A stretch of DNA of 64,000 nucleotides from positions 205,140 to 269,139 of the forward strand of contig JAYOLL010000001.1 of assembly GCA_038120295.1 (NCBI GenBank), in the 5' to 3' direction. This stretch comes from Rhodospirillales bacterium. GTDB taxonomy: Bacteria; Pseudomonadota; Alphaproteobacteria; MPNO01; UBA2964. The notes under the pieces were generated by a model. It saw only the letters and a list, made by a program, of their open reading frames with translations. It did no database searches and was not told the origin of the DNA. The position numbers and the translations under genes were made by a program. Each line of letters starts with the position of its first letter. The stretch's first letter is position 1. Below, in pieces: positions 13,216-29,222 of this stretch.

Positions 13216-13727
13216 TCCTGCCCGGTAGGACCTGTATCGGCAAGACCTGGATATTCGGCGACAACATCAACACCGACCTGATCCTTCCCGGCCGCGCACA
13301 GTGGTTCACAGAAGAAGAACAACTGGCCTGCGTTTTTGAGGCCAACCGCCCCGGATGGATCGACGAGATCGCGCCCGGTGAGATCATTATCGGCGGGCAG
13401 AATTTCGGCATGGGCTCAAGTCGCCCGGCGGCGCGGTCGCTGCGCAACCTGAAGCTCGGCTGCCTGGTCGCGGAGTCGATTAACGGGCTGTTCTTTCGCA
13501 ACTGCGTCAACTGGGGCTTCCGGGCGCTCGAATGTCCGGGCGTGTCAGAGGCGTTCGAGGAAGGCGATGTCGCGGAGGTGTCGTTCGAGGATTTCACCGT
13601 GCGCAACCAGCGGACGGGCGCGACGCTTCAGTCCGCCGCCGTGCCTGCGACGCTGCTTGCCACCATGGAAGCCGGCGGCGTACTGCCGCTGCTTGAGAAG
13701 GAAGGCCTGATCGAGGCGACGGAATAG
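13212..13727 (+). CDS. Aconitase-family dehydratase small subunit (LeuD/DmdB-like)
   Basis: 171 aa. GDNINTDLI and GGQNFGMGSSR swivel-domain motifs. Its ATG overlaps the large-subunit stop (ATGA at 13212-13215). Confidence 0.8.
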   Translation: MILPGRTCIGKTWIFGDNINTDLILPGRAQWFTEEEQLACVFEANRPGWIDEIAPGEIIIGGQNFGMGSSRPAARSLRNLKLGCLVAESINGLFFRNCVNWGFRALECPGVSEAFEEGDVAEVSFEDFTVRNQRTGATLQSAAVPATLLATMEAGGVLPLLEKEGLIEATE

Positions 13728-15158
13728 CTACTCCGCTGCCGCGGCACCGACTTTTCCGCTCATATATTTCGCGACCTCGTCCTCGACTACGGTGCCTTTG
13801 AAGAAGTCCGGATTCATACCGGCATGCATCGAAACGACATTGCCGAAGGTAAACTCGCGGAAATCGTCGTCGTCCATAAAGCCGTCCTCGACCATTTCAT
13901 AGGCCTCGACCATCACTTTCGACATATCCGGCACGTCCCAGTGGCCGATGTCGGAGCCGAGGAAAGCATTCAGCTTCAGCCCGTAATGGTTGATTCTGGG
14001 GTCGAAGGCGAGGGCATTGAGACTGTCATCCGCCTCGCAGCCGAAATAGAAGTTGCGCTGGAAAATATCGCGGATGTCCTCTCCCTTCGTGATTCCGCTT
14101 TCACGAAAATCGTCGACCTCTTCGGCGGGTACGAAGAGTTGCGTGGCTGACGGCTGGTGCGGCGCTTCGCGAATGCGTTCGGGCGTCAGGTAGTCGTTGC
14201 CGTACTTGTCGAACATCTCGACCATCAGGTCGATATTAAGCGCCGACGGGTCGAGATTGCGCTTTTCGAAATATTCGAACAGCGAGTTGTAAAGGGCTGC
14301 CGCCCAGCCGGGCCCGCCTTCGAGGAAGGCGTATTTGAGCGTCGGGAAACGTTTCGGTACGCCGCCCATGAACAGCGAACGGCAAAAAAACTCCGATCCC
14401 TTGGCGAAGCTGCCAAGCGAGTTGTGCACGTAGTTGGTGGGCGAGTTGTTGAGCGATCCGCGGCCACGCGACGAATTGTGGCAACTCGGTGCAACCTCGA
14501 GTTCTACGCATCTGGCCCATACCTTGTCGTATCTGTCGCCGACATCGATGGCGGGCGAGATTGGTGCGGTAGAATACTGCGCGAGGTGCGGCGCTTCCTT
14601 CACCACGTCCGGATGCGGCAGATGGATCTGGGTGTTCATGACGATAGCTTTGAGACCCAGCTCGTTGACCACGAATTCGAGCTCCGCCACGACTTCGTCG
14701 GGGTCGTGCATAGGGATCAGCGCGACCGGCGTCAGCCTGTCTTCAAGTCCTCTGAACATGTCGGCATAGAGCATGTTCATGGCGCGATAGATAACGGGAC
14801 GCATCTCGTCGTCGCCCTCGCGCATCACGGTCAACGCGTAGGTGCCGTATACGACACCAAAATCGATGCCTGCCTCGTCGAGTCGTTCGTAATAGAGCTT
14901 CGGCAGCATGGCGGTCGCGCGATCAATGCTCATGTCGCCGGAAAGCCCCACCCAGACCGCGCGCCGTCCGCGCGTCTGGTTGTCGTGAATCAGGTGCTGC
15001 TCGTATCGCTTCGCCATATCGGAACCGCCGACCTTTTTGACGAAATCGAGTATCGCGAAGCTCGCCTCGATCATGTGCCCGTCGGCATCCACTACCGGAT
15101 GGTTCAGCTTTTTACGAATGTCCGCGCCCTTGAGCTTGCTGTCGTGATGTCCCGTCAT
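13728..15158 (-). CDS. Amidohydrolase-2 family (metal-dependent TIM-barrel hydrolase/decarboxylase-like) protein
   Basis: 476 aa from ATG 15158 (MTGHHDSKLK...). VVDADGHMIE N-terminal metal-site region. Transcribed divergently from the UbiD gene. Confidence 0.65.
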   Translation of the reverse strand: MTGHHDSKLKGADIRKKLNHPVVDADGHMIEASFAILDFVKKVGGSDMAKRYEQHLIHDNQTRGRRAVWVGLSGDMSIDRATAMLPKLYYERLDEAGIDFGVVYGTYALTVMREGDDEMRPVIYRAMNMLYADMFRGLEDRLTPVALIPMHDPDEVVAELEFVVNELGLKAIVMNTQIHLPHPDVVKEAPHLAQYSTAPISPAIDVGDRYDKVWARCVELEVAPSCHNSSRGRGSLNNSPTNYVHNSLGSFAKGSEFFCRSLFMGGVPKRFPTLKYAFLEGGPGWAAALYNSLFEYFEKRNLDPSALNIDLMVEMFDKYGNDYLTPERIREAPHQPSATQLFVPAEEVDDFRESGITKGEDIRDIFQRNFYFGCEADDSLNALAFDPRINHYGLKLNAFLGSDIGHWDVPDMSKVMVEAYEMVEDGFMDDDDFREFTFGNVVSMHAGMNPDFFKGTVVEDEVAKYMSGKVGAAAAE

Positions 15159-15279
15159 GGCTCTGATCCCCTGTCTTGCCGTCCGCAAAAAGCTTAGTCC
15201 CGAAAGGGAGATTTGCGAAGGCTGCCCTGTACCGTTTTTCCTGCCTGGGATACGCTTGCGGAAACACAGGGAGTCTCCT

Positions 15280-16932
15280 ATGCCGAACGACACTGCGGGC
15301 CGTGACTATCCGGATTTTCACGATCATCTGGCGGCCCTGGAAGAGGCCGGGCTGCTGACCGTGATCGACGCGCCGGTCAACAAGGATACCGAACTGCATC
15401 CGCTGGTCCGCTGGCAGTTTCGGGGCGGCATTGCGGAAAAGGACCGCAAGGCGTTCAAGTTCACCAATGTGACAGACTCGAAGGGCCGGAAATACGATAT
15501 GCCGGTGGTGGTCAGCGCGCTGTCGACCAACGAGCAGATGTATTCGATCGGGATGGGCGTTCCGGTCGAGGAGATCGGCGACCGATGGAACCACGCCATC
15601 GCCAATCCGATCGATCCCGTGACGGTCGAAGATGCGCCCTGTCATGAGGTCGTGATCACCGGCGACGATCTGCGCGGAGAAGGCAAGGGGGTCGATGCGC
15701 TGCCGGTGCCGATTTCCACCCCGGGCTATGATTCAGCGCCGTATTTCACCGCGACCAACGTCACCACGAAGAACCCGGAGACGGGGACCCAGAATATGGG
15801 CACCTATCGTGTCGGGCTAAAGGCACCCGACCGTCTGGCGGTAAGGATGGTGGCGCGGCCCGGTGGCGCGGAGGGCCATCTGCACTGGGAGCTGTGGAAG
15901 AAGCGGGGCGAAAAGATGCCCTGCGCTGTTGTCGTTGGCTGCCCGCCGTCGGTTGCCTTCATGGGACCGCAGAAACTGCCGGTCGGGATCGAGGAGATGG
16001 CGGTCGCAGGCGGTGTGGTCGGGGCGCCGATCCGGCAGGTGAAGTGCAAAACCATCGACATCATGGTGCCGGCGGAATCCGAACTGGTGATCGAAGGGCT
16101 GGTCGATACGGAATATCTCGAACCCGAGGCGCCGTTTGCCGAGAGCCATGGCCATGTTGCGCTGGAGGATTACAACACGGTGATGGAGATTACCGCGATC
16201 ACGCACCGCAGGGACGCGGTCTATACCTCGATTATCTCTCAGCTTACCCCGTCGGAATCCTCTGTAATCAAGCGCGTAGCGTACGAGCCGCTCTACCTGT
16301 CGCATCTCCGCGACAATCTCGGTATCAAGGGCGTGAAGCGGGTCTATCTGCACGAGAAGCTGACCAACCTGCGCAAGGTGCTGTTCGTGGTCGTCGACAG
16401 AGATACGCCGACGACAGAGGTGTGGCGTGCGCTCTATGGCGCGTCGTCGCTTGCCGCCGCCATCGGCAAATACGTGGTCGCAATCAACGAGGACATCGAT
16501 CCGGAAAACGGCGATTCCGTATTCTGGGCGCTGGCCTACCGGTCGAACCCGGCGCTGGACGTGCAGATACTCAAGCACAAGGTGCGCTACGGGCCGCGCG
16601 ATCCGCGCACGCCCAACGGCGAAGAATCGATCTGCCTGATTGACGCGACGCTCAAGGCCGACATGCCTCCTATTGCGCTGCCCAAGCGCGAATACATGGA
16701 AGGCGCAAAAGAGCTATGGGAACGGCTGGGCCTGCCGCCTTTACAGCCGGAAAGCCCGTGGCATGGCTATTCGCTTGGCGACTGGACCGATGAATGGGAC
16801 GAGATGGCGAAACGCGCGGCGGAAGGAAATTACCTCGAGAACGGCCGCCGCAGCGCGCAATATCGCCGTAAGGATGTCGCGCCCAACACCTCCATTCGCG
16901 ATGTCCCGGGCGGCCCGTTCGACAAGTCCTGA
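15280..16932 (+). CDS. UbiD-family (prFMN-dependent) reversible decarboxylase
   Basis: 550 aa. Typical UbiD architecture and motifs (YPDFHDHLAALEEAGLL N-terminus, VVVGCPPSVAFMG, ESHGHV). AGGGA RBS before ATG 15280. Confidence 0.85.
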   Translation: MPNDTAGRDYPDFHDHLAALEEAGLLTVIDAPVNKDTELHPLVRWQFRGGIAEKDRKAFKFTNVTDSKGRKYDMPVVVSALSTNEQMYSIGMGVPVEEIGDRWNHAIANPIDPVTVEDAPCHEVVITGDDLRGEGKGVDALPVPISTPGYDSAPYFTATNVTTKNPETGTQNMGTYRVGLKAPDRLAVRMVARPGGAEGHLHWELWKKRGEKMPCAVVVGCPPSVAFMGPQKLPVGIEEMAVAGGVVGAPIRQVKCKTIDIMVPAESELVIEGLVDTEYLEPEAPFAESHGHVALEDYNTVMEITAITHRRDAVYTSIISQLTPSESSVIKRVAYEPLYLSHLRDNLGIKGVKRVYLHEKLTNLRKVLFVVVDRDTPTTEVWRALYGASSLAAAIGKYVVAINEDIDPENGDSVFWALAYRSNPALDVQILKHKVRYGPRDPRTPNGEESICLIDATLKADMPPIALPKREYMEGAKELWERLGLPPLQPESPWHGYSLGDWTDEWDEMAKRAAEGNYLENGRRSAQYRRKDVAPNTSIRDVPGGPFDKS

Positions 16933-16936
16933 TCGG

Positions 16937-19270
16937 ATGGCTATATCGACCCCTACCGGAATCGGGGCACCGCTGCCGCGGGCTGAGGACAGGCGTCTGC
17001 TGACCGGCGAGGGGAGCTACAGCGACGATATTTCACGTCCCGACCAGCTTCATATCGCTATGGTTCGCAGTCCCCATCCGCATGCGGAACTGTTCGGAGT
17101 CAATGCGACGGCGGCGAAGGCAATGGCTGGCGTGATCGATGTTCTGGACGGGGTCGACTGGCGCGCGGACGGTCTCGGTCCGATGCCGGCCTGGGGCAAC
17201 CCCAAGGATGTCGAACTGAAGAATGCCGACGGCTCCCCGATCTTCTATACGCCGCTCTGGCCGGTTGCGGTCGATCGCGTTCGTCGCGCAGGAGAGATCG
17301 TAGCCGTCGTTATCGCTGAAACGGAAGCGGCGGCCCAGGAAGCGGCGGAAGCCGTGTCACTCGACTGCAAGATTCTTCCCGCTGTCGTCGACCCTGAGGC
17401 CGCCCTGGCGGACGGCGCGCCTCTCCTGTGGAAAGAGGTTCCCGGCAACCTCAATTTGCGGGACGAGAAGGGCAATCGCGAGGCTACCGACCTGGTGTTC
17501 GAAAACGCCTGGCAGACGGTGTCGTTCGAGAGCTGGAACCAGCGCGTCACGGGCGTCCCAATGGAGCCGCGCGCGGCTCTCGGCGAATACAGCGACGGAA
17601 AATTCCTGCTCGAAGCGGGCGGGCAGGGCGTCATCCGGTTCCGTAACGAACTGGCCCAGACCTTCGGCGTCGATCCCGCCCACATGCATGTGATCACCCG
17701 TGACGTCGGTGGGGGGTACGGGACGCGTAACCACACCTACCCCGAATTTGCGCTTGTGCTATGGGCGGCGAAACGGATCGGCCGGCCAGTAAGATGGGTA
17801 TGCGAGCGCTCTGAGGCGTTCCTCAGCGACTATGCCGGGCGTGACCTGCATATGACAGTGGAGGTCGCACTCGACTCCACCGGCCGCATTCTAGCCATGC
17901 GCAATGGGAATACCGCCAATATCGGCACTCATACGATCAGCTATGTACCGCTGGCGCGCGGGCCGACGGTCTATAACGGGGTCTACGATATCCCGGTGGC
18001 GCACATTGTGTCTTCTGCGGTTTTCACCAACACGACGGCCACGGCATCCTATCGTGGGGCAGGGCGACCGGAAGCCATGTTCCTGATCGAACGGCTGATG
18101 GATGTCGTTGCCGCAGAAACCGGGATTGACCGGATAGAACTGCGCCGCCGAAACATGATCCCGGAAGACCGCATTCCCTACAGAAACGCAGTGGACGTTT
18201 CCTACGACAGCGGACGGTTCGAGCGGTCGATGGACATGGCGCTGGCGATGATCGGCTGGGTTGACGCGGACGCGCGCAAGATCGCGGCGAAGGAACGGGG
18301 AAAGTTGCGGGGCATAGGCCTTGCCAACTATATCGAGACGGCGACCGGCTACCCGCAGGAGCGCGCCGAGATGGAAATCATGCCGGGCGGAATTGTGGAT
18401 CTGATAATGGGGACGCAGTCGAGCGGCCAGAGCCATGAGACGACCTATCCGCAGGTCGTCTCGGATTGGCTCGGCGTACCGTATGACAGCGTTCGGCTGC
18501 GCACGGGCGATACCGACTTCGTGTCCGCCGGGTCCGGGTCCCATTCATCTCGCTCGATGAAGCTTGCCGGCCATCTTTACCGTCAAACCGCGGACGACAT
18601 CATCGAGCGCGGCGCCCAGATTTCAGCGCATCTGCTTGAGGCGTCGCGCGAAGATATCCTCTTTCATGACGGTCAGTTTGAAATTGAGGGGACCGACCGG
18701 TCTGTGCATCTGTTCGACGTCGCCCGCGAGGCGACCGGCGAGAACGTACCGGAGGAACTGCGTGGGCCTCTGCGCGCCGTGGCCGAAATCGCGGCGCCTC
18801 TTCCGACCTATCCAAACGGCTGTCACGCGGCAGAAGTCGAGATCGATCCGGAAACCGGGGTGGTGGAGATCGTTGTCTATGTCGGGGTGGACGATCCCGG
18901 CACCGTGATCAATCCGCTGGTGGTCGACGGTCAGACCCATGGCGGCGCAGTGCAAGGGATCGGGCAGGCGCTGATGGAAGCCTGCACCTACGATCCGGAC
19001 AGCGGACAGCTTCTGGCAGGCTCGTTCATGGATTACGCCATGCCACGCGCAGACGATGTGCCGTCTTTCGATACCGCCTTCAACGAGGTTCCGGCGCCTT
19101 CGACAGAGCTCGGCGTGAAGGGCGGCGGTGAAGGGGGCGCGACGGCGGCTCCGCCCGCGATTGTCAACGCGATCTGCGACGCGCTGTTGGAATACGGCGT
19201 GCGCCATATCGAAATGCCGGCCACACCAGAGCGCATCTGGCGGGCCATTCGCGATCATCAAACAGGCTGA
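16937..19270 (+). CDS. Xanthine dehydrogenase/aldehyde oxidase-family molybdopterin-binding large subunit (orphan)
   Basis: 777 aa from ATG 16937 (MAISTPTGIGAPLPRAEDRRLLTGEGSYSDD). MoCo-binding segments (GGGYG, SYRGAGRPE, C-terminal GVKGGGEGG). Starts 4 nt after the UbiD stop. Confidence 0.85.
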   Translation: MAISTPTGIGAPLPRAEDRRLLTGEGSYSDDISRPDQLHIAMVRSPHPHAELFGVNATAAKAMAGVIDVLDGVDWRADGLGPMPAWGNPKDVELKNADGSPIFYTPLWPVAVDRVRRAGEIVAVVIAETEAAAQEAAEAVSLDCKILPAVVDPEAALADGAPLLWKEVPGNLNLRDEKGNREATDLVFENAWQTVSFESWNQRVTGVPMEPRAALGEYSDGKFLLEAGGQGVIRFRNELAQTFGVDPAHMHVITRDVGGGYGTRNHTYPEFALVLWAAKRIGRPVRWVCERSEAFLSDYAGRDLHMTVEVALDSTGRILAMRNGNTANIGTHTISYVPLARGPTVYNGVYDIPVAHIVSSAVFTNTTATASYRGAGRPEAMFLIERLMDVVAAETGIDRIELRRRNMIPEDRIPYRNAVDVSYDSGRFERSMDMALAMIGWVDADARKIAAKERGKLRGIGLANYIETATGYPQERAEMEIMPGGIVDLIMGTQSSGQSHETTYPQVVSDWLGVPYDSVRLRTGDTDFVSAGSGSHSSRSMKLAGHLYRQTADDIIERGAQISAHLLEASREDILFHDGQFEIEGTDRSVHLFDVAREATGENVPEELRGPLRAVAEIAAPLPTYPNGCHAAEVEIDPETGVVEIVVYVGVDDPGTVINPLVVDGQTHGGAVQGIGQALMEACTYDPDSGQLLAGSFMDYAMPRADDVPSFDTAFNEVPAPSTELGVKGGGEGGATAAPPAIVNAICDALLEYGVRHIEMPATPERIWRAIRDHQTG

Positions 19271-19282
19271 GAGGAAACAGAC

Positions 19283-20014
19283 ATGGCCGACGACAAAATC
19301 CTTTGCGAAAAGAGGGGCGATGCGACTCACATCACGCTGAACCGGGCCGATTGCGGCGGGCTGGTCAGCGATCCGATGGCGGTCGAGCTTGCCGATATGA
19401 TCGACGCCGCGGCGGCGGAGTCGAAATATATCGTGTTCCGCAGCGCGGGCGCCGATTTCTGCCTTGGGCGAGACCCGGAAGGGCGTGAACCCGGCAAGCC
19501 GAAGGATGCACTGGATTCGCGCCGCCGGTCCGAGGTCGTGTTCAATTTTTACGGCGCATTCCGCCGGTCGAAGGTGCCGGTCGTCTGCGCTGCGCAGGGC
19601 CGCTCCCTCGGGTTCGGTTGCGCCATCACGTCGGTCTGCGACATTACCATCGCAGGGGAAAGTTCCACTTTTGCGCTACCCGAGATGGGGCACAACATCA
19701 TGCCGACCATGGCGATGTCGTCGCTGGTCGATCGGGTGGGACGCAAGGGCGCTCTGTATCTGACCTACTCGACCGAGGAAATCGACGCGCAGACCGCGCT
19801 TGCCTACGGGCTGGTGAGCCGGGTTGTTCCCGACGACCGGATCGAGGCCCAGGTGGAGCTGGTCTGCGCCGCTCTCGACAAGGCGCCTCTGCCGGCGGTG
19901 ATGTCGGTCAAGGAATACGCCACCAATGCACTCACCATGAGCATTGAGCAGGCATCCGATTTCGCCCGCAACATGCATGCGGCCGTGAATACGTCGGAAG
20001 GGATGCGGCGGTAA
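19283..20014 (+). CDS. Enoyl-CoA hydratase/isomerase (crotonase) family protein
   Basis: 243 aa. Crotonase fold signatures (FCLGRD, VPVVCAAQGRSLGFGCAI, oxyanion-hole region). Confidence 0.75.
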   Translation: MADDKILCEKRGDATHITLNRADCGGLVSDPMAVELADMIDAAAAESKYIVFRSAGADFCLGRDPEGREPGKPKDALDSRRRSEVVFNFYGAFRRSKVPVVCAAQGRSLGFGCAITSVCDITIAGESSTFALPEMGHNIMPTMAMSSLVDRVGRKGALYLTYSTEEIDAQTALAYGLVSRVVPDDRIEAQVELVCAALDKAPLPAVMSVKEYATNALTMSIEQASDFARNMHAAVNTSEGMRR

Positions 20015-20023
20015 ATTCGACCG

Positions 20024-21430
20024 ATGGCCGCCGGTTACTTTCGCGAACGCCGCCGCCTGGCCGCTGTTTTCGTCGTCGGCGGTCTGGCGGCGATGGCGGT
20101 CGTGCTGGGCGCCTTGTGGAAGTTGTCCGAAAACGCCGGCGGCGGCCATGAATCCTGGCTTGTCGTCGCTTTCGCACTGGCCGGGATCGTCGCCGGTCTG
20201 GCGCTGATCTGGGTGAGGCTCGACAGAACACTGCTCTATCCCCTCGAACGGCTGGAGCGCGAACTCGATACCTTGCTGCATGCGGATCCCAAGCGCGCAG
20301 TCGATCTGGTCGAACCTGGCCTGCTGGGACCGGTCATCGCCAGGATGGAACGCCTTTTTGCGCGCGCGGACAGGAGCAGGCAGGACCTGGCCGCTTCGAT
20401 AGCCGCAGCGACCGCCGCGCTGGAGAGCGACAGATCGAAGCTCGCAACGATCCTCCATGAACTGCCTGATGGCGTCGTGGTCTGTTCGGCTGATCATCGT
20501 ATCCTGCTCTTCAACGCCGCGGCCCGCCAGATTGTGGCCAACGGGGACCGGCTGGGCGTTGGGCAACCAGTCGATTTCTGTTTCGACAGGGAAACAGTGG
20601 CAAGTGCCTTCGACAGGGTCGCTGCGGGCGTTGGACGAGATATTTTGCTCATCGATTTGCCTCAGACAGGCCCCGCCCGCATTGCGGCCTGGCACGGTAA
20701 GGGCGGAGACTGCGAAGGGTACGTGCTGACGATTGTCGCCGAGCCAAACGGTGGCGAGGCGAAGATGAAACGGCTGGCCTACGATTTCGGAATTTCCGGT
20801 CGGCCGGTCGAGGAAACCGGGGGCGATGTGAAGCTCTCGGAGGCGACCTTCGTGGTTTTCGGTATTCTGACCACGGGGCTCCGGCCCGACAGAGGCGACC
20901 GGATCCTCCGGATTGGCGCCGTCAGGGTCTCGAACGGGAAAGTGCGCGAAGAGGAAGTCTTCGAGACTCTGGTCAATCCCGGCCGTCCTGTCCCGCCTTC
21001 TTCAACCCGGCTTCACGGTCTCACCGATGAAATTGTTGCCGATGCGCCCGATACGGTCCGGGCCATTGCGTCGTTTCACGCGTATTGCGGCGATGCCGTG
21101 CTCGTGGCGCAACATGCCGGGTTTGATATGCGGTTTCTGCGTAATAGCCAGCAGGAAGCGGGTGTAGAGTTCCCCGACAGGTTTCTTGATCCCATGCTGC
21201 TATCCTTCGTTCTTCATCCCGGGGAAAGCGACCATTCTCTCGCAGCGCTGGCGAGGCGTTACGGCGTCGATATAGCGGGACCGCACACGCTTAATGAAGA
21301 CGTACGGGGGGCGGCGGAAATTCTGTGCCGGATGGCGCCGCTGCTGGCCGCTTCGGGGATCGAAACGGTCGATCAGGCGATAGAGGCGTGCAGAAAGAGC
21401 ATCGCCAGAAACGGGAAGACGTCGGAATAG
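20024..21430 (+). CDS. Membrane-anchored PAS-domain protein with a C-terminal DnaQ-like 3'-5' exonuclease domain whose catalytic motif is degenerate
   Basis: 468 aa. Two N-terminal TM helices, coiled linker, PAS-like segment (LHELPDGVVVCSADHRILLFNAAARQIV). Exo domain with motif II HAGFDMRFL and motif III HTLNEDV. Motif I reads FVVFGILTTGL where DxETTG is expected. Confidence 0.6.
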   Translation: MAAGYFRERRRLAAVFVVGGLAAMAVVLGALWKLSENAGGGHESWLVVAFALAGIVAGLALIWVRLDRTLLYPLERLERELDTLLHADPKRAVDLVEPGLLGPVIARMERLFARADRSRQDLAASIAAATAALESDRSKLATILHELPDGVVVCSADHRILLFNAAARQIVANGDRLGVGQPVDFCFDRETVASAFDRVAAGVGRDILLIDLPQTGPARIAAWHGKGGDCEGYVLTIVAEPNGGEAKMKRLAYDFGISGRPVEETGGDVKLSEATFVVFGILTTGLRPDRGDRILRIGAVRVSNGKVREEEVFETLVNPGRPVPPSSTRLHGLTDEIVADAPDTVRAIASFHAYCGDAVLVAQHAGFDMRFLRNSQQEAGVEFPDRFLDPMLLSFVLHPGESDHSLAALARRYGVDIAGPHTLNEDVRGAAEILCRMAPLLAASGIETVDQAIEACRKSIARNGKTSE

Positions 21431-21589
21431 GATTCTGCCGGAAGGATCGCCTTTGCCGGCGGTATTTGCTCGATCAGAGCCTGCGACGGGTGCGCCGCCG
21501 GGCCAGTCCTATGGAAAATTCCGCTTGGCGGCTGCTTCGTGAAGCGCGAACATCAACTGTACCCGGGTCAACGTTGTGGGGGATGCGGC

Positions 21590-22471
21590 ATGACAGTCAG
21601 AAGTATTCTTACGGTTCTTGTCGGTGGGGAAGGCGACGCGGCAGCGCTTGGGTGTTCCGTTCGGGTCGCCCGGCATTCCGGCGCCCATATTGCAGCGGTC
21701 TCCGCCGTTTCGTCGAACGGGGCGGTCGGCGATCTCGGGTTGCTGCCCGAAGAGGGCGGAAGCGCGGTCATGCTGGAGTTCGAGAAGCGGGCGAAGGAAC
21801 GCGCCACACGGGCGCGCGCCGCATTCGATACGTTTGTTCGTACCGAAGCGGTTACAATATCCGACAGGCCAAAGTTGGAGGACAACGTTACGGCAAGCTG
21901 GGAAGAAATCGATGACGCGCCCGACAGCGTCGTCGAACATCTCGGCGGGGCCTACGATCTGATCGTCGTCGGGCAGCCGGAACGTGTTTCGGGCGGCATG
22001 GCAGGCAGCGGCCTGCTGAATGAACGGATTTTCGAAACCGCCACCTTTTCGACCGGGCGACCGGTTCTTGTTGCGCCAGCCAAAACGCCGGCCATGCTGG
22101 GTGAAACGGTCCTCATCGGCTGGAACCGGAGCGCCCAGGCTGCGCGGGCGTTTCACGCCAGCAAGGCGCTCCTTCTTAACAGGGCCCGGCGGGTACGGAT
22201 CGTGTCTGTTACAACGGGCGCCAAGGACGGACCGCCCGCCGAACGGATCGCGGAGAACCTGGCCTGGCACGGGATCGATTGCGACGTTCGGGAACTGTCG
22301 CCCGATAACAGATCGGTTGGGACAGTTCTGCTCGCTGAGGCCAGCGCTATCGGTGCGGATCTATTGGTCGCCGGCGCCTATACGCATAGCCGCCTGCGCC
22401 AGCTCTTGCTCGGCGGCGTGACGCAAAGCCTGCTGGCCGAAGCGGAAATCCCGCTGTTTTTCGCTCACTGA
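21590..22471 (+). CDS. Tandem universal stress protein (UspA) domain protein
   Basis: 293 aa from ATG 21590. Two Usp-like halves ending in LVVGAYTHSRLRQLLLGGVTQSLL. Confidence 0.7.
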   Translation: MTVRSILTVLVGGEGDAAALGCSVRVARHSGAHIAAVSAVSSNGAVGDLGLLPEEGGSAVMLEFEKRAKERATRARAAFDTFVRTEAVTISDRPKLEDNVTASWEEIDDAPDSVVEHLGGAYDLIVVGQPERVSGGMAGSGLLNERIFETATFSTGRPVLVAPAKTPAMLGETVLIGWNRSAQAARAFHASKALLLNRARRVRIVSVTTGAKDGPPAERIAENLAWHGIDCDVRELSPDNRSVGTVLLAEASAIGADLLVAGAYTHSRLRQLLLGGVTQSLLAEAEIPLFFAH

Positions 22472-22507
22472 CGGTCGCGAATAGTGGCAGTTTAGGCTTC
22501 TGCGGGG

Positions 22508-22729
22508 TCAGTAGTGCGGGGGCGGCGGCTCCTCTCCCTCAGGGTTTTCCAGCCGGTATGAAAGGGCTTCGAGCGTGGCTTCCAGCCGTTCGATCCGCGC
22601 CGAAAGCGCTTCCATTGCCGTCCACTGTTTCGTCACCACGTCGTTGAGGTCGTCGATCGTACCGTCCCGGTGCGCGATAAGGGTTTCCAGCGCGTCGAGA
22701 CGCTCGGTCAGGCGAGAAAGGTCCGGCAT
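22508..22729 (-). CDS. slyX: SlyX family protein
   Basis: 73 aa coiled-coil. LEERLDALE / LEATLEAL heptads typical of SlyX. Confidence 0.65.
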   Translation of the reverse strand: MPDLSRLTERLDALETLIAHRDGTIDDLNDVVTKQWTAMEALSARIERLEATLEALSYRLENPEGEEPPPPHY

Positions 22730-22737
22730 CGGATCAA

Positions 22738-23274
22738 TCAGAGAGGCCGGGCATATTCGTCGTCGCGACGTTCAGGGGGCTGCTTTTCGGCCTCCCGTTC
22801 GGCAAACCGGATGATGCGTTCGAAAAAGCCGAAAAACCGGTCCATCATCGCCGTCCGTTCTTCCGAACGTTTCTGCCGCTGTTCGGCCCGCTTCTTCTCG
22901 AGCTCCTGGGGTGAGGCGGCCGGAAGTTCGGTGGCGGCGGTCGATTTCGCGCAGATCATGCGATCCGCTTCGAGCCGGCATACCGTGATTTCCCCGGTTT
23001 CCGTATTCAGACGCCAGGCCTGCCCGTTGCCGGTTTTGACGATCTGGTACCGGCCGGCGGATGAGGGGGGGCGGCTGTCCGACGCCGGGGTATCCTCCGT
23101 CGCGACCTGAGGCGGCGGTGCTTTCGCGGCGACCGGTTGCTGGTTCGCGGAGTCGCCTGGCAACACCGGCGCGCCGGCGAAAATACCGGCGGCGATGATG
23201 ACGCTGCCGAAAATGATGGCCTTTCCTGCGGTTGGGCCGGACGATTGGTGGGGGGATGGGCTGTTATCGCTCAT
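22738..23274 (-). CDS. Hypothetical membrane-anchored protein (N-terminal TM helix, Pro-rich linker, charged C-terminus)
   Basis: 178 aa from ATG 23274 (MSDNSPSPHQSSGPTAGKAIIFGSVIIAAGIFAG). 8-bp gap to slyX on the same strand. No recognisable family. Confidence 0.4.
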   Translation of the reverse strand: MSDNSPSPHQSSGPTAGKAIIFGSVIIAAGIFAGAPVLPGDSANQQPVAAKAPPPQVATEDTPASDSRPPSSAGRYQIVKTGNGQAWRLNTETGEITVCRLEADRMICAKSTAATELPAASPQELEKKRAEQRQKRSEERTAMMDRFFGFFERIIRFAEREAEKQPPERRDDEYARPL

Positions 23275-23460
23275 ATCTGTTCTTTCCTGTTCATTGCGAT
23301 CTCCGGTCGCCCTGTTTCCCCGACCGGATACGGATAATGTGGTGATAAACGAGGTTCGATCAACGGAAACCCGCTCCGACCCATGAATTTCCATCTTCCC
23401 CTTATTTATCCCAGTCAATAAAGTGGTTTGCAATTCTGGCAAAACCAAGGCGGATCTCAC

Positions 23461-23775
23461 ATGCTGTTCATGTGCTACGGAATCGATGGTCCTGACGGCG
23501 CCGCGCGGCGCGATCTCGCACGCGAAGAGCATTTCGCCTATCTCAAGGCGAATGAGGATATCATGGTCCTCGGCGGGGCGACGCTCGCCGATGCGGATGA
23601 TACGCGGACCGGAAGCGTTCTGATCATCAATGTTCCCGACCGCGCCGCTGCCGAGGCGTTCGCCGACGGGGAGCCGCTCAGGAAGGCGGGCGTCTTCGAA
23701 AGCTATAAGATTACACGCATGCGACGCGGGCAGTGGTACCCGGAAAACGCGCCGAAAACAGCTGAGGGCGATTGA
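23461..23775 (+). CDS. YciI-like (Dabb-fold) protein
   Basis: 104 aa. MLFMCYGIDGPDG...REEHFAYLKAN...IMVLGGA pattern of the YciI family. Confidence 0.6.
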   Translation: MLFMCYGIDGPDGAARRDLAREEHFAYLKANEDIMVLGGATLADADDTRTGSVLIINVPDRAAAEAFADGEPLRKAGVFESYKITRMRRGQWYPENAPKTAEGD

Positions 23776-23792
23776 GGGTAAGAAGCGGGACG

Positions 23793-24449
23793 ATGCTGCG
23801 AAAACTTGTCTCAGGGATCGCGTGTTTTCTGCTGCTGGCGGGAAGCGTCTCCGCTGCGCCCGTCGTTATCGATTTTTCGGGCTTCGTCGATCAGTTCAAT
23901 CCCGGGCCGCACTCTCCCAACGTGCCACTGTTCGGACAGATCGTTCTCGACGACACTGTCGTTGCGAGCGGCCCCAACAACACTTTCGAAAACGCCATTC
24001 TGAGCCTGACGATAACGGTTCAGGATTCGGGAGGCGACGTGACCTTTACGAGCGCCGGACCGGGCGGCCGGGTGCAGCAGTTCGTCAACAACTCGACCGA
24101 ATTTATCGGGATCAATTTCGGTGCAAATTCAAGCGGCATTATAAACGGAACGGTGGAGGGGGCGTCGGGAACGCTCACGATGACCGATTTCGAGATCGAT
24201 TTTCGCGGCGTAGACCTGTTCGGCGACCCTACCGTTCTGGCGACCGGGCTGACCCAGGCGGATTTCAGCTTTTCTGAACTGACCGTCAATTACAGCACAA
24301 TCGGGCTGGAAGGGCTGATGGTCGAAAGGTCGCTTGATGTCGTCACGTTCTCGACCAGCGAGTCGATCGATGAGCCGCCGATGGCGCTTTTCCTTTCATT
24401 TGCCTTACTGTGGCTGGTCGGGCGGGCGCGTCAGGCGCCCCTCACCTGA
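23793..24449 (+). CDS. Secreted Gly/Thr-rich protein with a PEP-CTERM-like C-terminal sorting signal
   Basis: Signal peptide (MLRKLVSGIACFLLLAGSVSA). C-terminus SIDEPPMALFLSFALLWLVGRARQAPLT, i.e. an EPP motif, then a hydrophobic helix, then basic residues. Confidence 0.5.
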   Translation: MLRKLVSGIACFLLLAGSVSAAPVVIDFSGFVDQFNPGPHSPNVPLFGQIVLDDTVVASGPNNTFENAILSLTITVQDSGGDVTFTSAGPGGRVQQFVNNSTEFIGINFGANSSGIINGTVEGASGTLTMTDFEIDFRGVDLFGDPTVLATGLTQADFSFSELTVNYSTIGLEGLMVERSLDVVTFSTSESIDEPPMALFLSFALLWLVGRARQAPLT

Positions 24450-26029
24450 TCGATCAAGGCGCCGCTATCGTCGGGCAGGGCATCGTCCCGCCACGCGACA
24501 TGAGCGTCCGGCCGCACAAGCACCAGTTTCCGCTCGAAAAGGCGTATCGCATCCTCATTATCGAGGTCGACTATCTTTAACGGTACCTTGTGGTCTATGG
24601 CGGCAGCTTCCAGCGACGCAACATCGGTATCGGCCGCGCCCAGCCGCAACAGCACGAACCCGTCGCCAAACAGATCGAGGGTGGATTTGTCCCCGTCGAT
24701 CCAGCAATGCGGCGCCCTTGTGCCAGGCCGCGCCGACGGCTTGAGTAGATCCGGGCCCTGGGGCGGGGAGGTGCCATCGGCGACGCAGATGGGCGAATTC
24801 TCGTAGCGCATATAGGCGCGGATCTGGTCCGGGATCGACAGGCTGCGCATCAGGGACTGGTCTGCTTCGACAGCGGCCGACAGGCTGTCCGCCGCCGGAA
24901 GGGCGGAGAGGGCGTCGTACGTATCGGTCGACAAATCGACAAAATGCCGGGCGATCGGGCGGCACTCTATTTCGTATGACGGGATCAGGTTCGTCCCGCC
25001 CCAGCCCTTGAACACCGCCTCGAATTTCCAGGCGAGATTGTAGGCCTCGCTCACGCCGGTATGCATGCCCAGTCCGCCGGTGGGCGAGCATTGATGCGCG
25101 GAATCTCCCGCAATCAGGACCCGTCCGGGACCGATTTCCGATCCGTAAGTCCGCGCCACATAGTCGCGCCGCTCCCAGGGAGAGGTATCGATGATCTCGA
25201 ACTCGAAATCCTTTCCCATCATACGTTTGAGATAGGAATCGCCAGCGATGTCGGGATCGTCGTCATGGAAAACCGTCAGGCGCCAGTATTCCTTCCCGTC
25301 GATGGCGATCAGCTCCGACCAGCAGCCGGTTTCATCGACCATGCGGTAGAAGCGCGCCCAGCCCTTGTCGTGCATCGAGGCCAGCCCCGGCGACCGGAAG
25401 AACACGTTGACGCTGGTCGCGATGGTACCCAGCCCGTCGAGCGGAATATCGAGCGCATCGCGAACCTTGCTGCTGCCGCCGTCGCACCCGACCATGTAAA
25501 GAGCGGAAATTACGTATGTTTTTTCGTTTTCGCGATCCAGAACGGTCGCGCGGACGCCGGTTTCGTCCTGCTCGAAGGATTCCAGCTGCGTGTTGTAGCG
25601 AATATCGGCTCTGGGCAGGGACTGCGCTTTCTCGGCCAGAATAGGGTCGAAATAGATCTGTGGGCAGGTACAGGTGCCTTCCGGCGAATATTCCAGATTG
25701 CCGCGCTGCATGTAGGACGGCACCTTGAGCCGCGCCAGCTCTTCTCCCAGCAGCCCGTTGGTGTAGACGAAATCGAGCGGATGGGAGCTCGACCAGACGG
25801 CGTTGCGGACCTTGTCCGCGATGCCCCAGCGGCGGCAGAACTCCATGTTCCGGCCGCTGACTTGGCTCATGCGCGGCACGCGCAGCCTGCCGTCGCGCCG
25901 TTCGACGAGGATGCAGTCGATCCCTCGGATCCCAAGCTCAATCGCCAGCGAAAGCCCAACCGGACCCGCGCCGACGATCAGGACGGACGTCGAAAAACTG
26001 TCGTCACTGATTGCGCTACTGTCAGCCAT
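24431..26029 (-). CDS. FAD-dependent aromatic-ring monooxygenase (PheA/TfdB family)
   Basis: 532 aa. N-terminal GAGPVGLSLAIEL dinucleotide fold, GCDGGSSKVR, and GRVLIAGDSAHQCSPTGGLGMHTG FAD motif. C-terminal thioredoxin-like extension. Confidence 0.85.
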   Translation of the reverse strand: MADSSAISDDSFSTSVLIVGAGPVGLSLAIELGIRGIDCILVERRDGRLRVPRMSQVSGRNMEFCRRWGIADKVRNAVWSSSHPLDFVYTNGLLGEELARLKVPSYMQRGNLEYSPEGTCTCPQIYFDPILAEKAQSLPRADIRYNTQLESFEQDETGVRATVLDRENEKTYVISALYMVGCDGGSSKVRDALDIPLDGLGTIATSVNVFFRSPGLASMHDKGWARFYRMVDETGCWSELIAIDGKEYWRLTVFHDDDPDIAGDSYLKRMMGKDFEFEIIDTSPWERRDYVARTYGSEIGPGRVLIAGDSAHQCSPTGGLGMHTGVSEAYNLAWKFEAVFKGWGGTNLIPSYEIECRPIARHFVDLSTDTYDALSALPAADSLSAAVEADQSLMRSLSIPDQIRAYMRYENSPICVADGTSPPQGPDLLKPSARPGTRAPHCWIDGDKSTLDLFGDGFVLLRLGAADTDVASLEAAAIDHKVPLKIVDLDNEDAIRLFERKLVLVRPDAHVAWRDDALPDDSGALIDQVRGA

Positions 26030-26041
26030 TCCTGGTGGTTC

Positions 26042-26722
26042 CTACATCGACTGAAAACATTTCAGCGCGGCTGCCCGCGAAGCCTTCGCCGCCGCCTCGT
26101 CGTAGCCAGGTTTGTAGGGCATGGCGAAATTATGCGAGGCGCCCGGATAGACGCCGATCTCGGCATTGGGGTGGCTGGCGTAGGATTTCTTGATCGCGTC
26201 TACCTCGTCCATCGGCACGACGGGGTCTTCCTCTCCGAAATGGAAGCTGATGGGGCATCTGACGTTGGGCGTTTCGTCGAGATGCTCGCCGATCAGGGTG
26301 CCGTGATAGGCAGCTGCCGCATCCACTCCGAGCCGTGCGGCGGCGAGGTGCGCATAGCGTCCGCCGAAACAGTAGCCCAAAACCCCCACCTTTCCGTTGC
26401 ATTCCGGTCGCGCCTTCAGATCTGCGATCAGGTCTTCGATATCAAGCATCCCTTGCACCGGGTCGAAGGCCTCGTAACGTGCGAAGGCCTTTTCCATATC
26501 GGCGGTCGGGCCGGGCATGACGCGCCAGAAGATGTCAGGAACCGAGACGACAAAACCGTCCGCCGCCCAGGCGTCGGCGATTTCCTTCATCTCGTCATCG
26601 ACCCCGAAAATTGCCGTGATCAGCAGGATGCCCGGCGCAGCCTTGCCGCCGTCAGGCGCGGACAGATAACCGGTGAATTCCTCTTTCGCGCGGGTGGTAT
26701 AGGTAATGTCCCTGCTGGCCAT
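26042..26722 (-). CDS. Dienelactone hydrolase family protein
   Basis: 226 aa. GYCFGG nucleophile (Cys-type DLH). His near the C-terminus (GASHNF). 12 bp upstream of the monooxygenase gene, suggesting an operon. Confidence 0.8.
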   Translation of the reverse strand: MASRDITYTTRAKEEFTGYLSAPDGGKAAPGILLITAIFGVDDEMKEIADAWAADGFVVSVPDIFWRVMPGPTADMEKAFARYEAFDPVQGMLDIEDLIADLKARPECNGKVGVLGYCFGGRYAHLAAARLGVDAAAAYHGTLIGEHLDETPNVRCPISFHFGEEDPVVPMDEVDAIKKSYASHPNAEIGVYPGASHNFAMPYKPGYDEAAAKASRAAALKCFQSM

Positions 26723-26752
26723 GCTTCTTCTCCCTGTTATCGCGTGCCCATG

Positions 26753-27799
26753 TTACCCAAGGGTCGGGTCGATGACGATCTTTCCCTTCACGCCGCCGGT
26801 TTCCAGCATGTCGTACGCATCGTGCAGGGCCGCCAGCGGCATAATGTGGTCGATGGCGCAGCTCAGCCGGCCGGTCCTGGCGAAATCTAGCGCCCGTTCG
26901 ACGTTCTTCCGGCTCGAACCGGCTCCGCCGATCACGCGAAGTCGCCGCAGGTACAGCCGCCTTGCATCGAGTGGAACCGTGCCGCCGCCATGCGCGCCGG
27001 CGGTCACGAGCCTGCCGCTGAAGGCGAGACATTCGAATGCTTTCGGCCAGGTTGTCGGGTCCGAGATGTTTTCGAACACGACATCGGCGCCGCGCCCTTC
27101 AGTGATCTTCATGACCTCTTCGACGAGATCCTGTTCGCGGTAATTGACTCCGTGGTCTGCGCCGAGCGAAAGGCCGAGTTCAACGCGTTCGTCCGCACCC
27201 GCGCCGGCGATCACGGTCGCGCCCATCAGCTTCGCGATCTGGATACCGGTGCTGCCAAGCCCGCCGCCGGCGCCCATGACAAGGACGGTTTCGTCCGGTT
27301 TCAGCCCCGCCTTGTCGTCCAGCAGCTGGATCGCCGTCGGGCAGTGCCGCATGAAGACGGCGGCTTCCTGAAACGAGATATTGTCGGGAATGACGCGGAT
27401 GTTGTCAGCCGGCGCGGCGATGTACTCGGCATAGCCGCCCCAGCGCTGGATTCCCATTGTCGAACCCGACCGGCAATCGGCGTCGTTGCCGGCATTGCAA
27501 TAGACGCATTCGCCGCAGGGGGAGCGCGAAATCACGACGACGCGGTCGCCAGTTGAAATGCCTGAAACCTCGTCGCCTGCCTCGACGACCACGCCTGACG
27601 GGTCGACTCCCGGCACTAGGGGAAGGGCATCGGCCTTGCCGTAATGTCCCTCGGCCGCCTGAACGTCGCGCGTGCGGTTGGCCGTAACGGCATGTACCTC
27701 GACGAGCACGCCGTCCGGTCCGATTGCCGGGCGCTCGACTTCCGCCAACCGCATGACGTCGCGCCAGGGGCCGTATTCCCGGATCAGAATTGCTTTCAT
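26753..27799 (-). CDS. Zinc-binding alcohol dehydrogenase (MDR family)
   Basis: 348 aa. Structural-Zn Cys cluster (CGECVYCNAGNDADC). GAGGGLGSTGIQIAKLMG Rossmann motif. Confidence 0.85.
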   Translation of the reverse strand: MKAILIREYGPWRDVMRLAEVERPAIGPDGVLVEVHAVTANRTRDVQAAEGHYGKADALPLVPGVDPSGVVVEAGDEVSGISTGDRVVVISRSPCGECVYCNAGNDADCRSGSTMGIQRWGGYAEYIAAPADNIRVIPDNISFQEAAVFMRHCPTAIQLLDDKAGLKPDETVLVMGAGGGLGSTGIQIAKLMGATVIAGAGADERVELGLSLGADHGVNYREQDLVEEVMKITEGRGADVVFENISDPTTWPKAFECLAFSGRLVTAGAHGGGTVPLDARRLYLRRLRVIGGAGSSRKNVERALDFARTGRLSCAIDHIMPLAALHDAYDMLETGGVKGKIVIDPTLG

Positions 27800-27826
27800 A
27801 TTGGTCGCAGGCTCCCAAAGTCTGCC

Positions 27827-27896
27827 CCAGCCCTCTCCCCCTCCTGACCACCCATCAGGATACTCTCGTGGGTGGTCAGGAGGGGGAGAGGGCTGG
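27827..27896. repeat. Palindromic intergenic repeat, copy 1 (26-bp perfect stem, 18-nt centre)
   Basis: CCAGCCCTCTCCCCCTCCTGACCACC-CATCAGGATACTCTCGTG-GGTGGTCAGGAGGGGGAGAGGGCTGG. It shares the 28-nt core CCACCCATCAGGATACTCTCGTGGGTGG with the element at 49524-49585. Confidence 0.7.
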
Positions 27897-27914
27897 CACC
27901 AAATTCCGCATAAG

Positions 27915-28337
27915 TTACTTCGGCGGACCGACCGACCAGCGGCGGTTGTCTATCTCCAGCACCCCGTCGGCGAGGTTGAGGGTCATCCGCATGTTGCCCT
28001 CGTTGCGCTGCCACGGGATGACGTCGATTTCGCGCTGGCCGTACTTCGTGTAGGGCTCCTGCATGGCAAGCTCGGTTGCTTCCGCCCGGCTGGCGGCGCG
28101 GAAGATCAGCAGCCCGGTGCCGCGCGTCCAACCCTCGTCATCGCGACACGGACCGGCGGCGAACAGGACGCCGCGTCGCTCCATCTCGCAGAGGAAATCA
28201 TGGTGCTCAAGCCGCATCTCGGCCTGCGGCTTGGGCGGCTCCGGTGGGTTTTCGGCGGGGCGCATCATGATCAGGTAACACTGCTCGCGCTGCAGGCCTG
28301 CCATCAGTTCTTCTGCTTTTTTTTCTGCGTCGCTCAT
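27915..28337 (-). CDS. YciI-like domain protein with a C-terminal extension
   Basis: 140 aa. CYLIMMRP...HHDFLCEMERRGVLFAAGP fits the YciI/Dabb pattern. Confidence 0.5.
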   Translation of the reverse strand: MSDAEKKAEELMAGLQREQCYLIMMRPAENPPEPPKPQAEMRLEHHDFLCEMERRGVLFAAGPCRDDEGWTRGTGLLIFRAASRAEATELAMQEPYTKYGQREIDVIPWQRNEGNMRMTLNLADGVLEIDNRRWSVGPPK

Positions 28338-28343
28338 CGGTTT

Positions 28344-29222
28344 CTATTCCTCAAGAAATTTAAAGGCGTACCCGTCGGCGGTGCCGACGACATGGCCTGC
28401 GGTCGGACAGGGGAAATGCGCCGGGATCAGCAGGGTATCGGTGTCGGCGATCTCGCTCAGGATACGACGCTTGGTCGCCGACGCCGCTTCCATGTCGGTG
28501 CATCGGATGGTGCTCCAGCCCGGCTCGAAGACTTGCAGCGGATGGTGGAACGCGTCTCCGGCGAATAACGCCTTCGTGCCCGCGGATTCGAAATTGGCGC
28601 AGCACTGGCCCGGCGTGTGACCGAAAGCCGGGCTAAGATGCAGCAGATCGTTGATCTCGTAATCGTCCTCGACGAGGATCGCGCGCCCTGCCTCCACAAT
28701 GGGCAGGACCGAATCCTCGAAGGACGGGCCGGACGGGTGCGGGCCGTTCTCCTTGTTCCATGCCTGCGAGTGCTCGAACTCCTTGCGGCCGAAAATGTAC
28801 TGCGCGTTGGGAAAGGTCGGCACCCAGCGCCCGTTCTCCAGCTTCGTGTTCCAGCCGACATGATCGACATGCAGATGGGTGCAGAACACGATGTCGATAT
28901 CCTCAAACGTTACGCCCGCCGCAAGGAATTCCGCCCGCCAGCGGTCCTTGGGATAAAGCAGCCCCTCGCGCCGGTCCTCATGCTCGCCGACGCAGGTGTC
29001 GATCAGGATGTTGTGATGCGGCGTTTTCAGGAGAAAGGACTGAAAGGTAAGACACAGCCAGCCGGTTTCCCGGTCGACAACGAAGTCGGGCAGGGCGGTC
29101 AGGTGTTTTTCGACCAGCTCCTTCGTCGCCTTCGGAAACATGTGATAGGGGTCGTGATAGGGCCCCTCGCGCTCAATGATGCGCGTCAGCGTGACATCTC
29201 CGAGCGGCATGGTGTTCTGCAT
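28344..29222 (-). CDS. MBL-fold metallo-hydrolase
   Basis: 292 aa. THLHVDHVGW (HxHxDH), with further His/Asp ligands downstream (GHTPG, AGDAFHH). Confidence 0.8.
   Translation of the reverse strand: MQNTMPLGDVTLTRIIEREGPYHDPYHMFPKATKELVEKHLTALPDFVVDRETGWLCLTFQSFLLKTPHHNILIDTCVGEHEDRREGLLYPKDRWRAEFLAAGVTFEDIDIVFCTHLHVDHVGWNTKLENGRWVPTFPNAQYIFGRKEFEHSQAWNKENGPHPSGPSFEDSVLPIVEAGRAILVEDDYEINDLLHLSPAFGHTPGQCCANFESAGTKALFAGDAFHHPLQVFEPGWSTIRCTDMEAASATKRRILSEIADTDTLLIPAHFPCPTAGHVVGTADGYAFKFLEE

Follow-up and report, generated by a model that had tools for sequence, protein, structure and literature searches.

A membrane-anchored PAS protein with a degenerate DEDDh exonuclease domain: an apparently recent and local loss of the active site within a widespread family

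The gene considered here lies in a 64-kb stretch of the genome of a Rhodospirillales bacterium (64,000 nucleotides of contig JAYOLL010000001.1, hereafter the window), between a gene for an enoyl-CoA hydratase (ECH) and a Usp gene. Its open reading frame (ORF), at positions 20024-21430 of the forward strand, encodes a protein of 468 amino acids that comprises two transmembrane (TM) helices, a long helix, a PAS domain, a linker and a C-terminal domain of the DEDDh exonuclease type with a degenerate active site. The exact protein, P0001, is recovered from NCBI, ENA and Logan assemblies with identical codons. An earlier note, drawn up from the letters of the sequence, had described the domain as lacking both of its motif I carboxylates, and had suggested from this a catalytically dead output or sensor domain that binds nucleic acids or nucleotides.

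The N-terminal part of the protein is predicted to form a membrane hairpin. The first TM helix, at approximately residues 12-34 (20057-20125, forward strand), corresponds to the hydrophobic stretch LAAVFVVGGLAAMAVVLGALWKL, which is preceded by the basic sequence RERRR and sits inside a modelled helix of residues 2-37. The second, at approximately residues 45-66 (20156-20221, forward strand), corresponds to the stretch WLVVAFALAGIVAGLALIWVRL inside a modelled helix of residues 43-86. From the basic residues that flank both segments, and from the positive-inside rule, we infer an N-in/C-in topology that would place all of the domains in the cytoplasm. The loop joining the two helices, on the outside, is only around 10 residues long, and a periplasmic sensor domain is therefore absent. 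A long cytoplasmic helix (residues 99-146; 20318-20461, forward strand) is then modelled as running into the PAS region, as is found in signalling proteins, and Foldseek matches this N-terminal part to WalK (9a5d_A).

The PAS-like domain itself, approximately residues 147-240 (20462-20743, forward strand), is recognized from weak Pfam matches, from the PAS matches of homologues and from modelled strands and helices. In the window protein PAS, PAS_4 and PAS_8 are found with E-values of 0.003-0.006, under their gathering scores, and PAS lies above the Pfam threshold in homologues; the AlphaFold2 model places five strands together with helices in residues 150-237, and L140, L162 and N164 are invariant in the homologue alignment (A1). 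The order of two TM helices, PAS and exonuclease given in the earlier note is borne out, with the PAS assignment resting on the homologue matches, the AlphaFold2 model and the WalK match. A disordered linker (residues 241-269; 20744-20830, forward strand) follows, delimited by the alignment and by a model confidence (pLDDT) below 50 at residues 241-265. It holds a degraded form of the family motif RPxFYDFxL, which here reads KRLAYDFGI.

The C-terminal domain, residues 270-455 (20831-21388, forward strand), has the DnaQ/PolC-like DEDDh fold (Pfam RNase_T), as judged from Pfam, PDB sequence matches, Foldseek and pLDDT. RNase_T (PF00929) is matched over residues 283-434 with an E-value of 1.4e-23 and a score of 84.7 bits against a cut-off of 24; the match begins at profile position 7, which leaves motif I outside it. 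The AlphaFold2 model, made with 40 homologues, has a mean pLDDT of 85.1, and within the DEDDh domain the means of ten-residue blocks are mostly 92-97, with a single block at 85. Among solved structures the best relative by sequence is the PolC exonuclease of T. maritima (2p1j, E 2.6e-19), with Pol III epsilon also matched, and Foldseek relates the C-terminal domain to PolC (E 1e-11), DinG-exo and Pol III epsilon (TM-score of about 0.8, normalised to epsilon). The nearest NCBIfam models are PolC-type and "DEDD exonuclease domain-containing", with every score far under its cut-off. The same is true of the dnaQ equivalogs, TIGR01406 giving 75.0 bits against a cut-off of 222.7 and PRK05711 giving 70.1 against 196, and the JGI label "DNA polymerase-3 subunit epsilon" is for this reason unjustified.

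In DEDDh enzymes, as established for Pol III epsilon, the Asp of motif I bridges both metal ions and the Glu of motif I binds metal A. Motif I of the window protein (20849-20881, forward strand) reads FVVFGILTTGL, with G280 (GGT, 20861-20863), I281 and L282 (CTG, 20867-20869) in place of D, T and E. Codons 280 and 282 are in frame, G280 and L282 align to the D and E of the homologues' FDTETTGL, and the FVVLDFETTGL of T. maritima PolC pairs with the window motif residue by residue. The D-x-E of the DEDDh superfamily is replaced by G-I-L in the window and by D-I-L in other strains of the species. Motif II, AQHAGFDMRFL (21107-21139, forward strand), keeps the catalytic D368 (GAT, 21125-21127), with the H-N of the family changed to Q-H (H363Q, N364H). 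Motif III, PHTLNEDVRGAA (21281-21316, forward strand), keeps H421 and D426 in an H-x4-D arrangement, with changes at R420P, A423L, L424N, G425E and T430A; L424N counts as a change at a position that is at least 90% conserved only in the less exhaustive of the two homologue sets described below. D368, H421 and D426 all lie on invariant columns of the family. The change at codon 425 (GAA, 21296-21298) introduces a new carboxylate beside the catalytic D426, at a position where 98% of the family representatives have Gly and where T. maritima PolC has Asp (HRALDDA).

The motif I substitutions and codons of the earlier note are confirmed in these alignments. The comparison that it had proposed with Pfam RNase_T starts past motif I, and it is the alignment with homologues that establishes the change of D to G and of E to L. 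Its statement that motifs II and III are retained holds for the catalytic residues D368, H421 and D426, and does not hold for the residues around them that are listed above. Judged from motif I, the domain has almost certainly lost the activity of a canonical two-metal DEDDh nuclease, and in this respect the earlier reading of a catalytically dead domain, rather than a nuclease, is supported by the change of Glu to Leu in all strains and of Asp to Gly in this one. With Leu at the Glu position throughout, and with the conserved Thr and Asn lost too, canonical two-metal hydrolysis would be very unlikely in any strain; with Gly280, as in the window strain, it would be excluded for practical purposes.

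Elsewhere the active site is intact. A word-indexed search gave 117 homologues, of which 116 have D-x-E at motif I. An exhaustive phmmer search of 1.84 billion representative proteins gave 729 clusters at E <= 1e-30, and the best 147 of these, as 50%-identity representatives, were examined for their motifs: each of the 147 retains D-x-E at motif I, Asp at motif II and both His and Asp at motif III, and set against them the window cluster alone has a broken catalytic set. The closest relatives, P0002, P0003 and P0004, are 47-48% identical to the window protein over the full length, match it in length and architecture and read FDTETTGL. The one exception among the 117 is P0071 (694 aa, on a single 6-kb contig), where motif I reads FDTGTRGPRP, with Glu changed to Gly and TTGL degraded; this may reflect an independent second inactivation, or else an error in the sequence. 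Loss of the catalytic residues in common among orthologues of different species, as in an Exuperantia-like pseudonuclease, is not the pattern found, since all homologues outside the species cluster except P0071, and all 147 representatives, keep D-x-E. A search of genome contigs with the window protein for intermediate orthologues gave only remote DnaQ-like matches of 28-32% identity.

Within the species the two motif I carboxylates have fared differently. The 90%-identity cluster contains 15 distinct proteins, including that of the window, and I281 and L282 are present in all 15. Asp280 (FVVFDILTTGL) is kept in 11 of the other 14, and Gly280 is found in three of them as well as in the window protein. 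The two states are encoded by GAT and GGT respectively: besides the window, seven independent assemblies (L001-L007) have the codons GGT ATT CTG, and five others (L012-L016) have GAT ATT CTG. The changes of Glu to Leu and Thr to Ile are fixed in the species, and that of Asp to Gly is a segregating single-transition polymorphism. The replacement of both carboxylates described in the earlier note is accordingly a property of the window strain and not of the species. Of the 15 cluster variants, 13 carry an intact gene; P0127, at 389 aa, represents a partial sequence, and P0130 is without its last residue. Residues 424, 427, 429 and 430 also vary between conspecific alleles. When the differences are polarised by the orthologues, the window allele has the derived state at D280 and T430, neither of which varies among 39 aligned homologues, and at A427, whereas at R321 and V152 it is the L012 allele that has changed. 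Change in the active-site shell is thus ongoing within the species.

The substitutions are not spread evenly through the domain. In the 147 representatives, 45 positions of the exonuclease domain are at least 90% conserved, and the window protein violates eight of them: D280G, E282L, H363Q, N364H, R420P, A423L, G425E and T430A. These violations fall on 8 of the 19 conserved positions within five residues of the five catalytic positions, versus none of the 26 elsewhere (Fisher p = 3.5e-4), and the less exhaustive homologue set gives an equal picture. As far as conservation can tell, the fold core is under selection and the active-site shell alone appears released or remodelled, unlike a uniformly decaying pseudogene. 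An ordinary pseudogene can be rejected, as the frame is open in all variants, the whole-gene ratio of nonsynonymous to synonymous polymorphism (pN/pS) is 0.18 and every conserved core position is retained.

Rates of change were compared both between and within species. Three-taxon branch lengths, with P0003 or P0015 as the outgroup, make the window branch 1.7-2.3 times longer than that of P0002 in the PAS and exonuclease domains and nearly 3 times longer or more in the linker, the segment that has evolved fastest on the branch of the window; in the TM region the ratio is 0.9-1.4. Within the species, Nei-Gojobori estimates of pN/pS between the window allele and that of L012, the most divergent conspecific allele, are 0.07 for residues 1-135, 0.42 for the PAS domain and 0.62 for the exonuclease domain, where there are 9 nonsynonymous and 5 synonymous differences. 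For the same pair of alleles the nonsynonymous to synonymous counts are 0:28 in ECH, 1:9 in Usp and 14:9 in the PAS and exonuclease domains together. The last of these differs from the equally diverged Usp with p = 0.009 and from the TM part with p = 0.0015, and is indistinguishable from neutrality (p = 0.11). An acceleration of the whole gene relative to ECH was considered and rejected, because the divergence ratio of the exonuclease gene to ECH is around 4-5 fold both between the window and locus L017 and between loci L017 and L021, two loci that encode canonical orthologues. The acceleration is domain-specific.

A side observation concerns the L012 allele itself. When L012:304-2451 is compared with window positions 19283-21430 it proves to be a mosaic: synonymous divergence is 0.16-0.27 in ECH and in the first ~135 codons of the exonuclease gene, and ~0.03-0.04 in the rest of the exonuclease gene and in Usp. 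This suggests a recombination breakpoint within the exonuclease gene, near the TM/PAS boundary.

The gene is located downstream of genes for UbiD and a molybdopterin-binding dehydrogenase (MoCoDH). The MoCoDH large subunit, identified by Pfam, is encoded at 16937-19270 and the enoyl-CoA hydratase (Pfam ECH_1) at 19283-20014, both on the forward strand. The ECH stop codon is 9 nt ahead of the start codon of the exonuclease gene, and the two genes are therefore probably co-transcribed; a scan for promoters and terminators around the gene found nothing over shuffled expectation. The same gene order is found with canonical DTE orthologues, as MoCoDH-ECH-exonuclease at L021 and ECH-exonuclease at L017, where identity to the window is 87% for ECH at both loci and 72% for MoCoDH at L021. 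P0002 and P0004 are thus syntenic with the window gene and orthologous to it by gene order.

On the downstream side a Usp gene (21590-22471, forward strand), with a Pfam Usp match over residues 241-289 only, fills the slot in which L017 and L021 carry a convergent gene for a CBS-DUF294 protein. Comparison of this gene (window 21539-22471) with L001, L002, L013 and L014 gives calls of 293, 297 and 198 aa within the one species, and L014 has a 1-base gap relative to the window, which points to indel or start-site polymorphism. More widely, gene calls on L001 and L013 that correspond to window positions 13200-29300 include AcnX-type aconitase subunits, amidohydrolase_2, UbiD decarboxylase, the MoCo dehydrogenase, ECH, an FAD monooxygenase (Rng_hyd_C), a dienelactone hydrolase, Zn-ADH, YCII, a metallo-beta-lactamase-fold protein and SnoaL. 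The block looks like an aromatic or acyl-CoA catabolic island, a context that is unlike the acetate-uptake context of several more distant loci of the family.

By architecture and synteny the window gene is the local orthologue of a widespread TM-PAS-DEDDh family. Its members are anchored in the cytoplasmic membrane by an N-in TM hairpin, to which a coiled helix and a PAS domain are joined, in some cases along with a His-less kinase-like insert; the 3'-5' exonuclease domain, of the DnaQ/PolC type, lies at the C-terminus. The short forms are ~470-510 aa, and the databases label family members "exonuclease domain-containing protein" or "3'-5' exonuclease". The window protein has this short-form architecture and the gene order of P0002 and P0004, with the KRLAYDFGI sequence as a partly kept linker motif. 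It is unlike the rest of the family in its broken catalytic set, in the degradation of RPxFYDF and in the lack of a DUF294 gene at the locus. In another kind of fusion, P0092 and P0100 (~510 aa) carry the exonuclease domain behind an EamA-type transporter that replaces the TM-PAS module. Long members of ~700 aa, namely P0045 (L024:6001-8118), P0024 (L023:6001-8109) and P0007 (L027:6001-8118), have an insert of ~220 residues between the PAS and exonuclease domains, with weak HisKA matches and an H-box-like TEGLRxPLANLRAAAE sequence that has no histidine at the phospho-acceptor position; to judge from these matches, an active exonuclease seems here to be joined to a pseudo-histidine-kinase core.

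The usual companion of the family is a CBS-DUF294 protein, whose gene lies within two genes of the exonuclease gene in 5 of 8 distinct family loci (L017, L021, L023, L024 and L026), the window species being left out of the count. At L017 and L021 the exonuclease gene is followed by a convergent CBS-DUF294-DUF294_C gene. The DUF294 gene is accompanied by DUF4212 and an SSF permease at L023, by Acs, an SSF permease, a response regulator and an SSF-fused histidine kinase at L024, and by an SSF permease at L026; at L019/L020, which count as one locus, the contig ends just past the exonuclease gene. In P0111 (701 aa) the exonuclease domain is fused straight to CBS-DUF294-DUF294_C, and this supports a functional link between the exonuclease and DUF294. 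In P. aeruginosa, PA3232 (a nuclease) and PA3233 (with cNMP, CBS and DUF294 domains) are presumably such a pair, next to actP. The genes PA3232-PA3235 belong to one cluster that includes ActP and is induced by propionate (PMC9765439). The literature searched yielded no function assigned to the exonuclease-DUF294 pair, and no paper on DUF294 with an exonuclease or on PAS with DnaQ and transmembrane segments. In the window, tblastn with four DUF294 proteins found no DUF294 gene in the 64 kb. A scan of metagenome contigs with the L017 DUF294 protein, by a method that needs shared exact 8-mers, gave one unrelated match of 34%.

The window domain can be set beside a number of better-known systems. 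With the DnaQ/PolC-type DEDDh exonucleases it shares the fold, the motif II Asp and the H-x4-D of motif III, and it differs from them in having G/D-I-L at motif I and His for the Asn of motif II. In contrast to Pol III epsilon and PolC, it is anchored in the membrane with a PAS domain and stands outside any polymerase. Changes at the same two motif I positions are known from the laboratory: the PolC chain 9qpc_A reads VVFAVATTGL at motif I and is probably an engineered exo-minus construct, and dnaQ926 is presumed to alter the same two residues. The dnaQ926 allele is a dominant-negative variant in which proofreading is abrogated (PMC4633624). Both, however, represent laboratory Ala changes in otherwise intact sites, whereas the window protein has natural Gly and Leu at these positions together with changes in the shell around them.

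Natural loss of catalytic carboxylates from an exonuclease fold that is itself kept is also known. The 3'-5' exonuclease domain of Taq DNA polymerase I is inactive. Drosophila Exuperantia, according to a reference cited in PMC5785220, is an RNA-binding pseudonuclease. In both cases the loss is ancient and conserved across orthologues, and that of Exuperantia is tied to the RNA binding shown for it. The loss in the window protein, by contrast, is confined to one species-level cluster, is polymorphic and comes with no demonstrated replacement function.

We consider it probable that the window gene is a young, species-specific pseudo-enzyme, a non-catalytic remnant that has been retained at the end of the MoCoDH-ECH operon. 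Direct observation covers the substitutions, the fact that they are polymorphic, unique and concentrated at the active site, and the absence of the partner from the locus. Since the relatives keep an intact site, these observations point to a recent and local loss of activity and not to a new protein class. The earlier idea, taken as a dedicated type of dead output or sensor domain, fails by the refuting condition that the note had itself set, orthologues with an intact DxE, with canonical DTE in the three closest relatives, D-x-E in the orthologues and in all of the best 147 representatives, and Asp still present in conspecifics.

The events may be pictured as follows. The nuclease of the relatives has a complete DEDDh set and is usually encoded beside a CBS-DUF294 nucleotidyltransferase. 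In the lineage of the species, the metal-A Glu changed to Leu and the neighbouring Thr to Ile, with both becoming fixed, and the first-shell residues around motifs II and III were replaced. In the window strain the metal-bridging Asp additionally became Gly, by one transition. Relaxed constraint may have been the cause of the active-site loss, and the absence of the DUF294 gene from the locus suggests that loss of the active site and loss of the partner could be linked. The domain is predicted still to fold, with its core selected, the membrane-proximal part is strongly constrained and the active-site shell is drifting. Any surviving function would then reside in the TM and PAS part, or simply in there being a folded domain, and not in phosphodiester hydrolysis. 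The conserved fold core and the constrained TM region mean that the protein is still made and is of some importance, and a retained non-catalytic role is conceivable in view of a fold core that is fully conserved.

A number of points weigh against this interpretation. The within-species pN/pS values come from 23 substitutions and from a comparison with the mosaic L012, in which synonymous divergence falls from 0.27 at the 5' end to 0.03 at the 3' end, and low divergence inflates pN/pS. Thirteen of the 15 variants have an intact gene and all 26 conserved positions outside the active site are unchanged; the domain is therefore under selection, which is as compatible with a retained binding or scaffold function as with a harmless remnant. 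The carboxylate introduced by G425E next to D426 could, in Asp280 alleles, partly replace E282. The DUF294 partner may sit elsewhere in the genome, the search having covered the 64-kb window. Finally, L018 and L027, both with canonical DTE, have no adjacent DUF294 gene, and L022, a short contig, has none immediately downstream, so that adjacency is not obligatory.

The alternative that survives best, although we judge it unlikely, is a repurposed pseudo-enzyme in which the dead pocket has been remodelled to receive the 3' end of a nucleic acid, an oligonucleotide or a nucleotide messenger, so that the domain would provide input or output by binding, coupled to the PAS/membrane module. It would account for a fold core that is perfectly conserved while only the pocket has changed, for the retention of D368, H421 and D426, and for an intact gene in 13 of 15 variants with a whole-gene pN/pS of 0.18. 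It also has a precedent in Exuperantia, as an RNA-binding DEDD pseudonuclease described in a reference that PMC5785220 cites. A settled pocket is, however, hard to reconcile with the variation among conspecific alleles at the family-invariant D280 and T430 and at residues 424, 427 and 429, or with a pN/pS of 0.62 for the exonuclease domain that is indistinguishable from 1. The remodelled pocket is found in no second lineage among the best 147 representatives, and the locus shows no obvious partner gene or gene related to a ligand. Although possible, a new binding function is unsupported: nothing indicates the nucleotide or nucleic-acid binding that the earlier note had proposed, and the differences between strains at D280 and T430 speak against a settled binding pocket.

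Highly unlikely, in our view, is a rewired but active nuclease, in which Glu425 beside D426 would be a candidate metal ligand replacing E282 in the majority Asp280 alleles and Gly280 would be a recent null. The location of G425E against catalytic D426, where 98% of representatives have Gly, the retention of D280 in most strains and the acidic residue of T. maritima PolC at the equivalent of 425 (HRALDDA) all lend themselves to such a scheme. Against it, the family-conserved N364 and T281 are lost too, and the Gly280 allele is present in many independent assemblies and hence is tolerated. We know of no DEDDh enzyme that works without the Glu of motif I. As for an artefact of sequencing, assembly or reading frame that mimics the loss of D and E, its probability is negligible, because the same codons recur in assemblies from ENA, Logan and NCBI that are independent, an error would have to span three codons and four nucleotide changes, and the ORF is continuous and aligned to orthologues over its full length; the substitutions, which by the earlier note a resequenced motif I could have refuted, are real.

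Beyond the young pseudo-enzyme that we favour for the window gene, a more speculative suggestion, which we regard as quite unlikely as it stands, concerns the parent family. Its exonuclease could be a PAS-gated "eraser" at the membrane that works against the CBS-DUF294 nucleotidyltransferase as "writer", the two forming a switch that adds and removes nucleotides and so controls the uptake of short-chain acids. The window protein would be a natural catalytic-null form of this eraser, and its dead domain, instead of being a remnant, would then act as a substrate-trapping reader of a nucleotidylated 3' end or nucleotide product.

Taken alone, one more enzyme domain without its catalytic residues is a modest result. 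Its value lies in the very early stage at which this pseudo-enzyme has been caught, with the Glu lost throughout the species and the Asp still segregating by one base. The resulting natural allele series, from DTE through DIL to GIL, allows the question to be asked of what a DEDDh fold serves once catalysis is gone, and may provide a tool for the parent family and its DUF294 partner. The more interesting question is the role of that parent family, the membrane PAS-exonucleases paired with DUF294 nucleotidyltransferases, which extends over 729 clusters at E <= 1e-30 and of which several loci carry genes for an acetate-type permease or acetyl-CoA synthetase.

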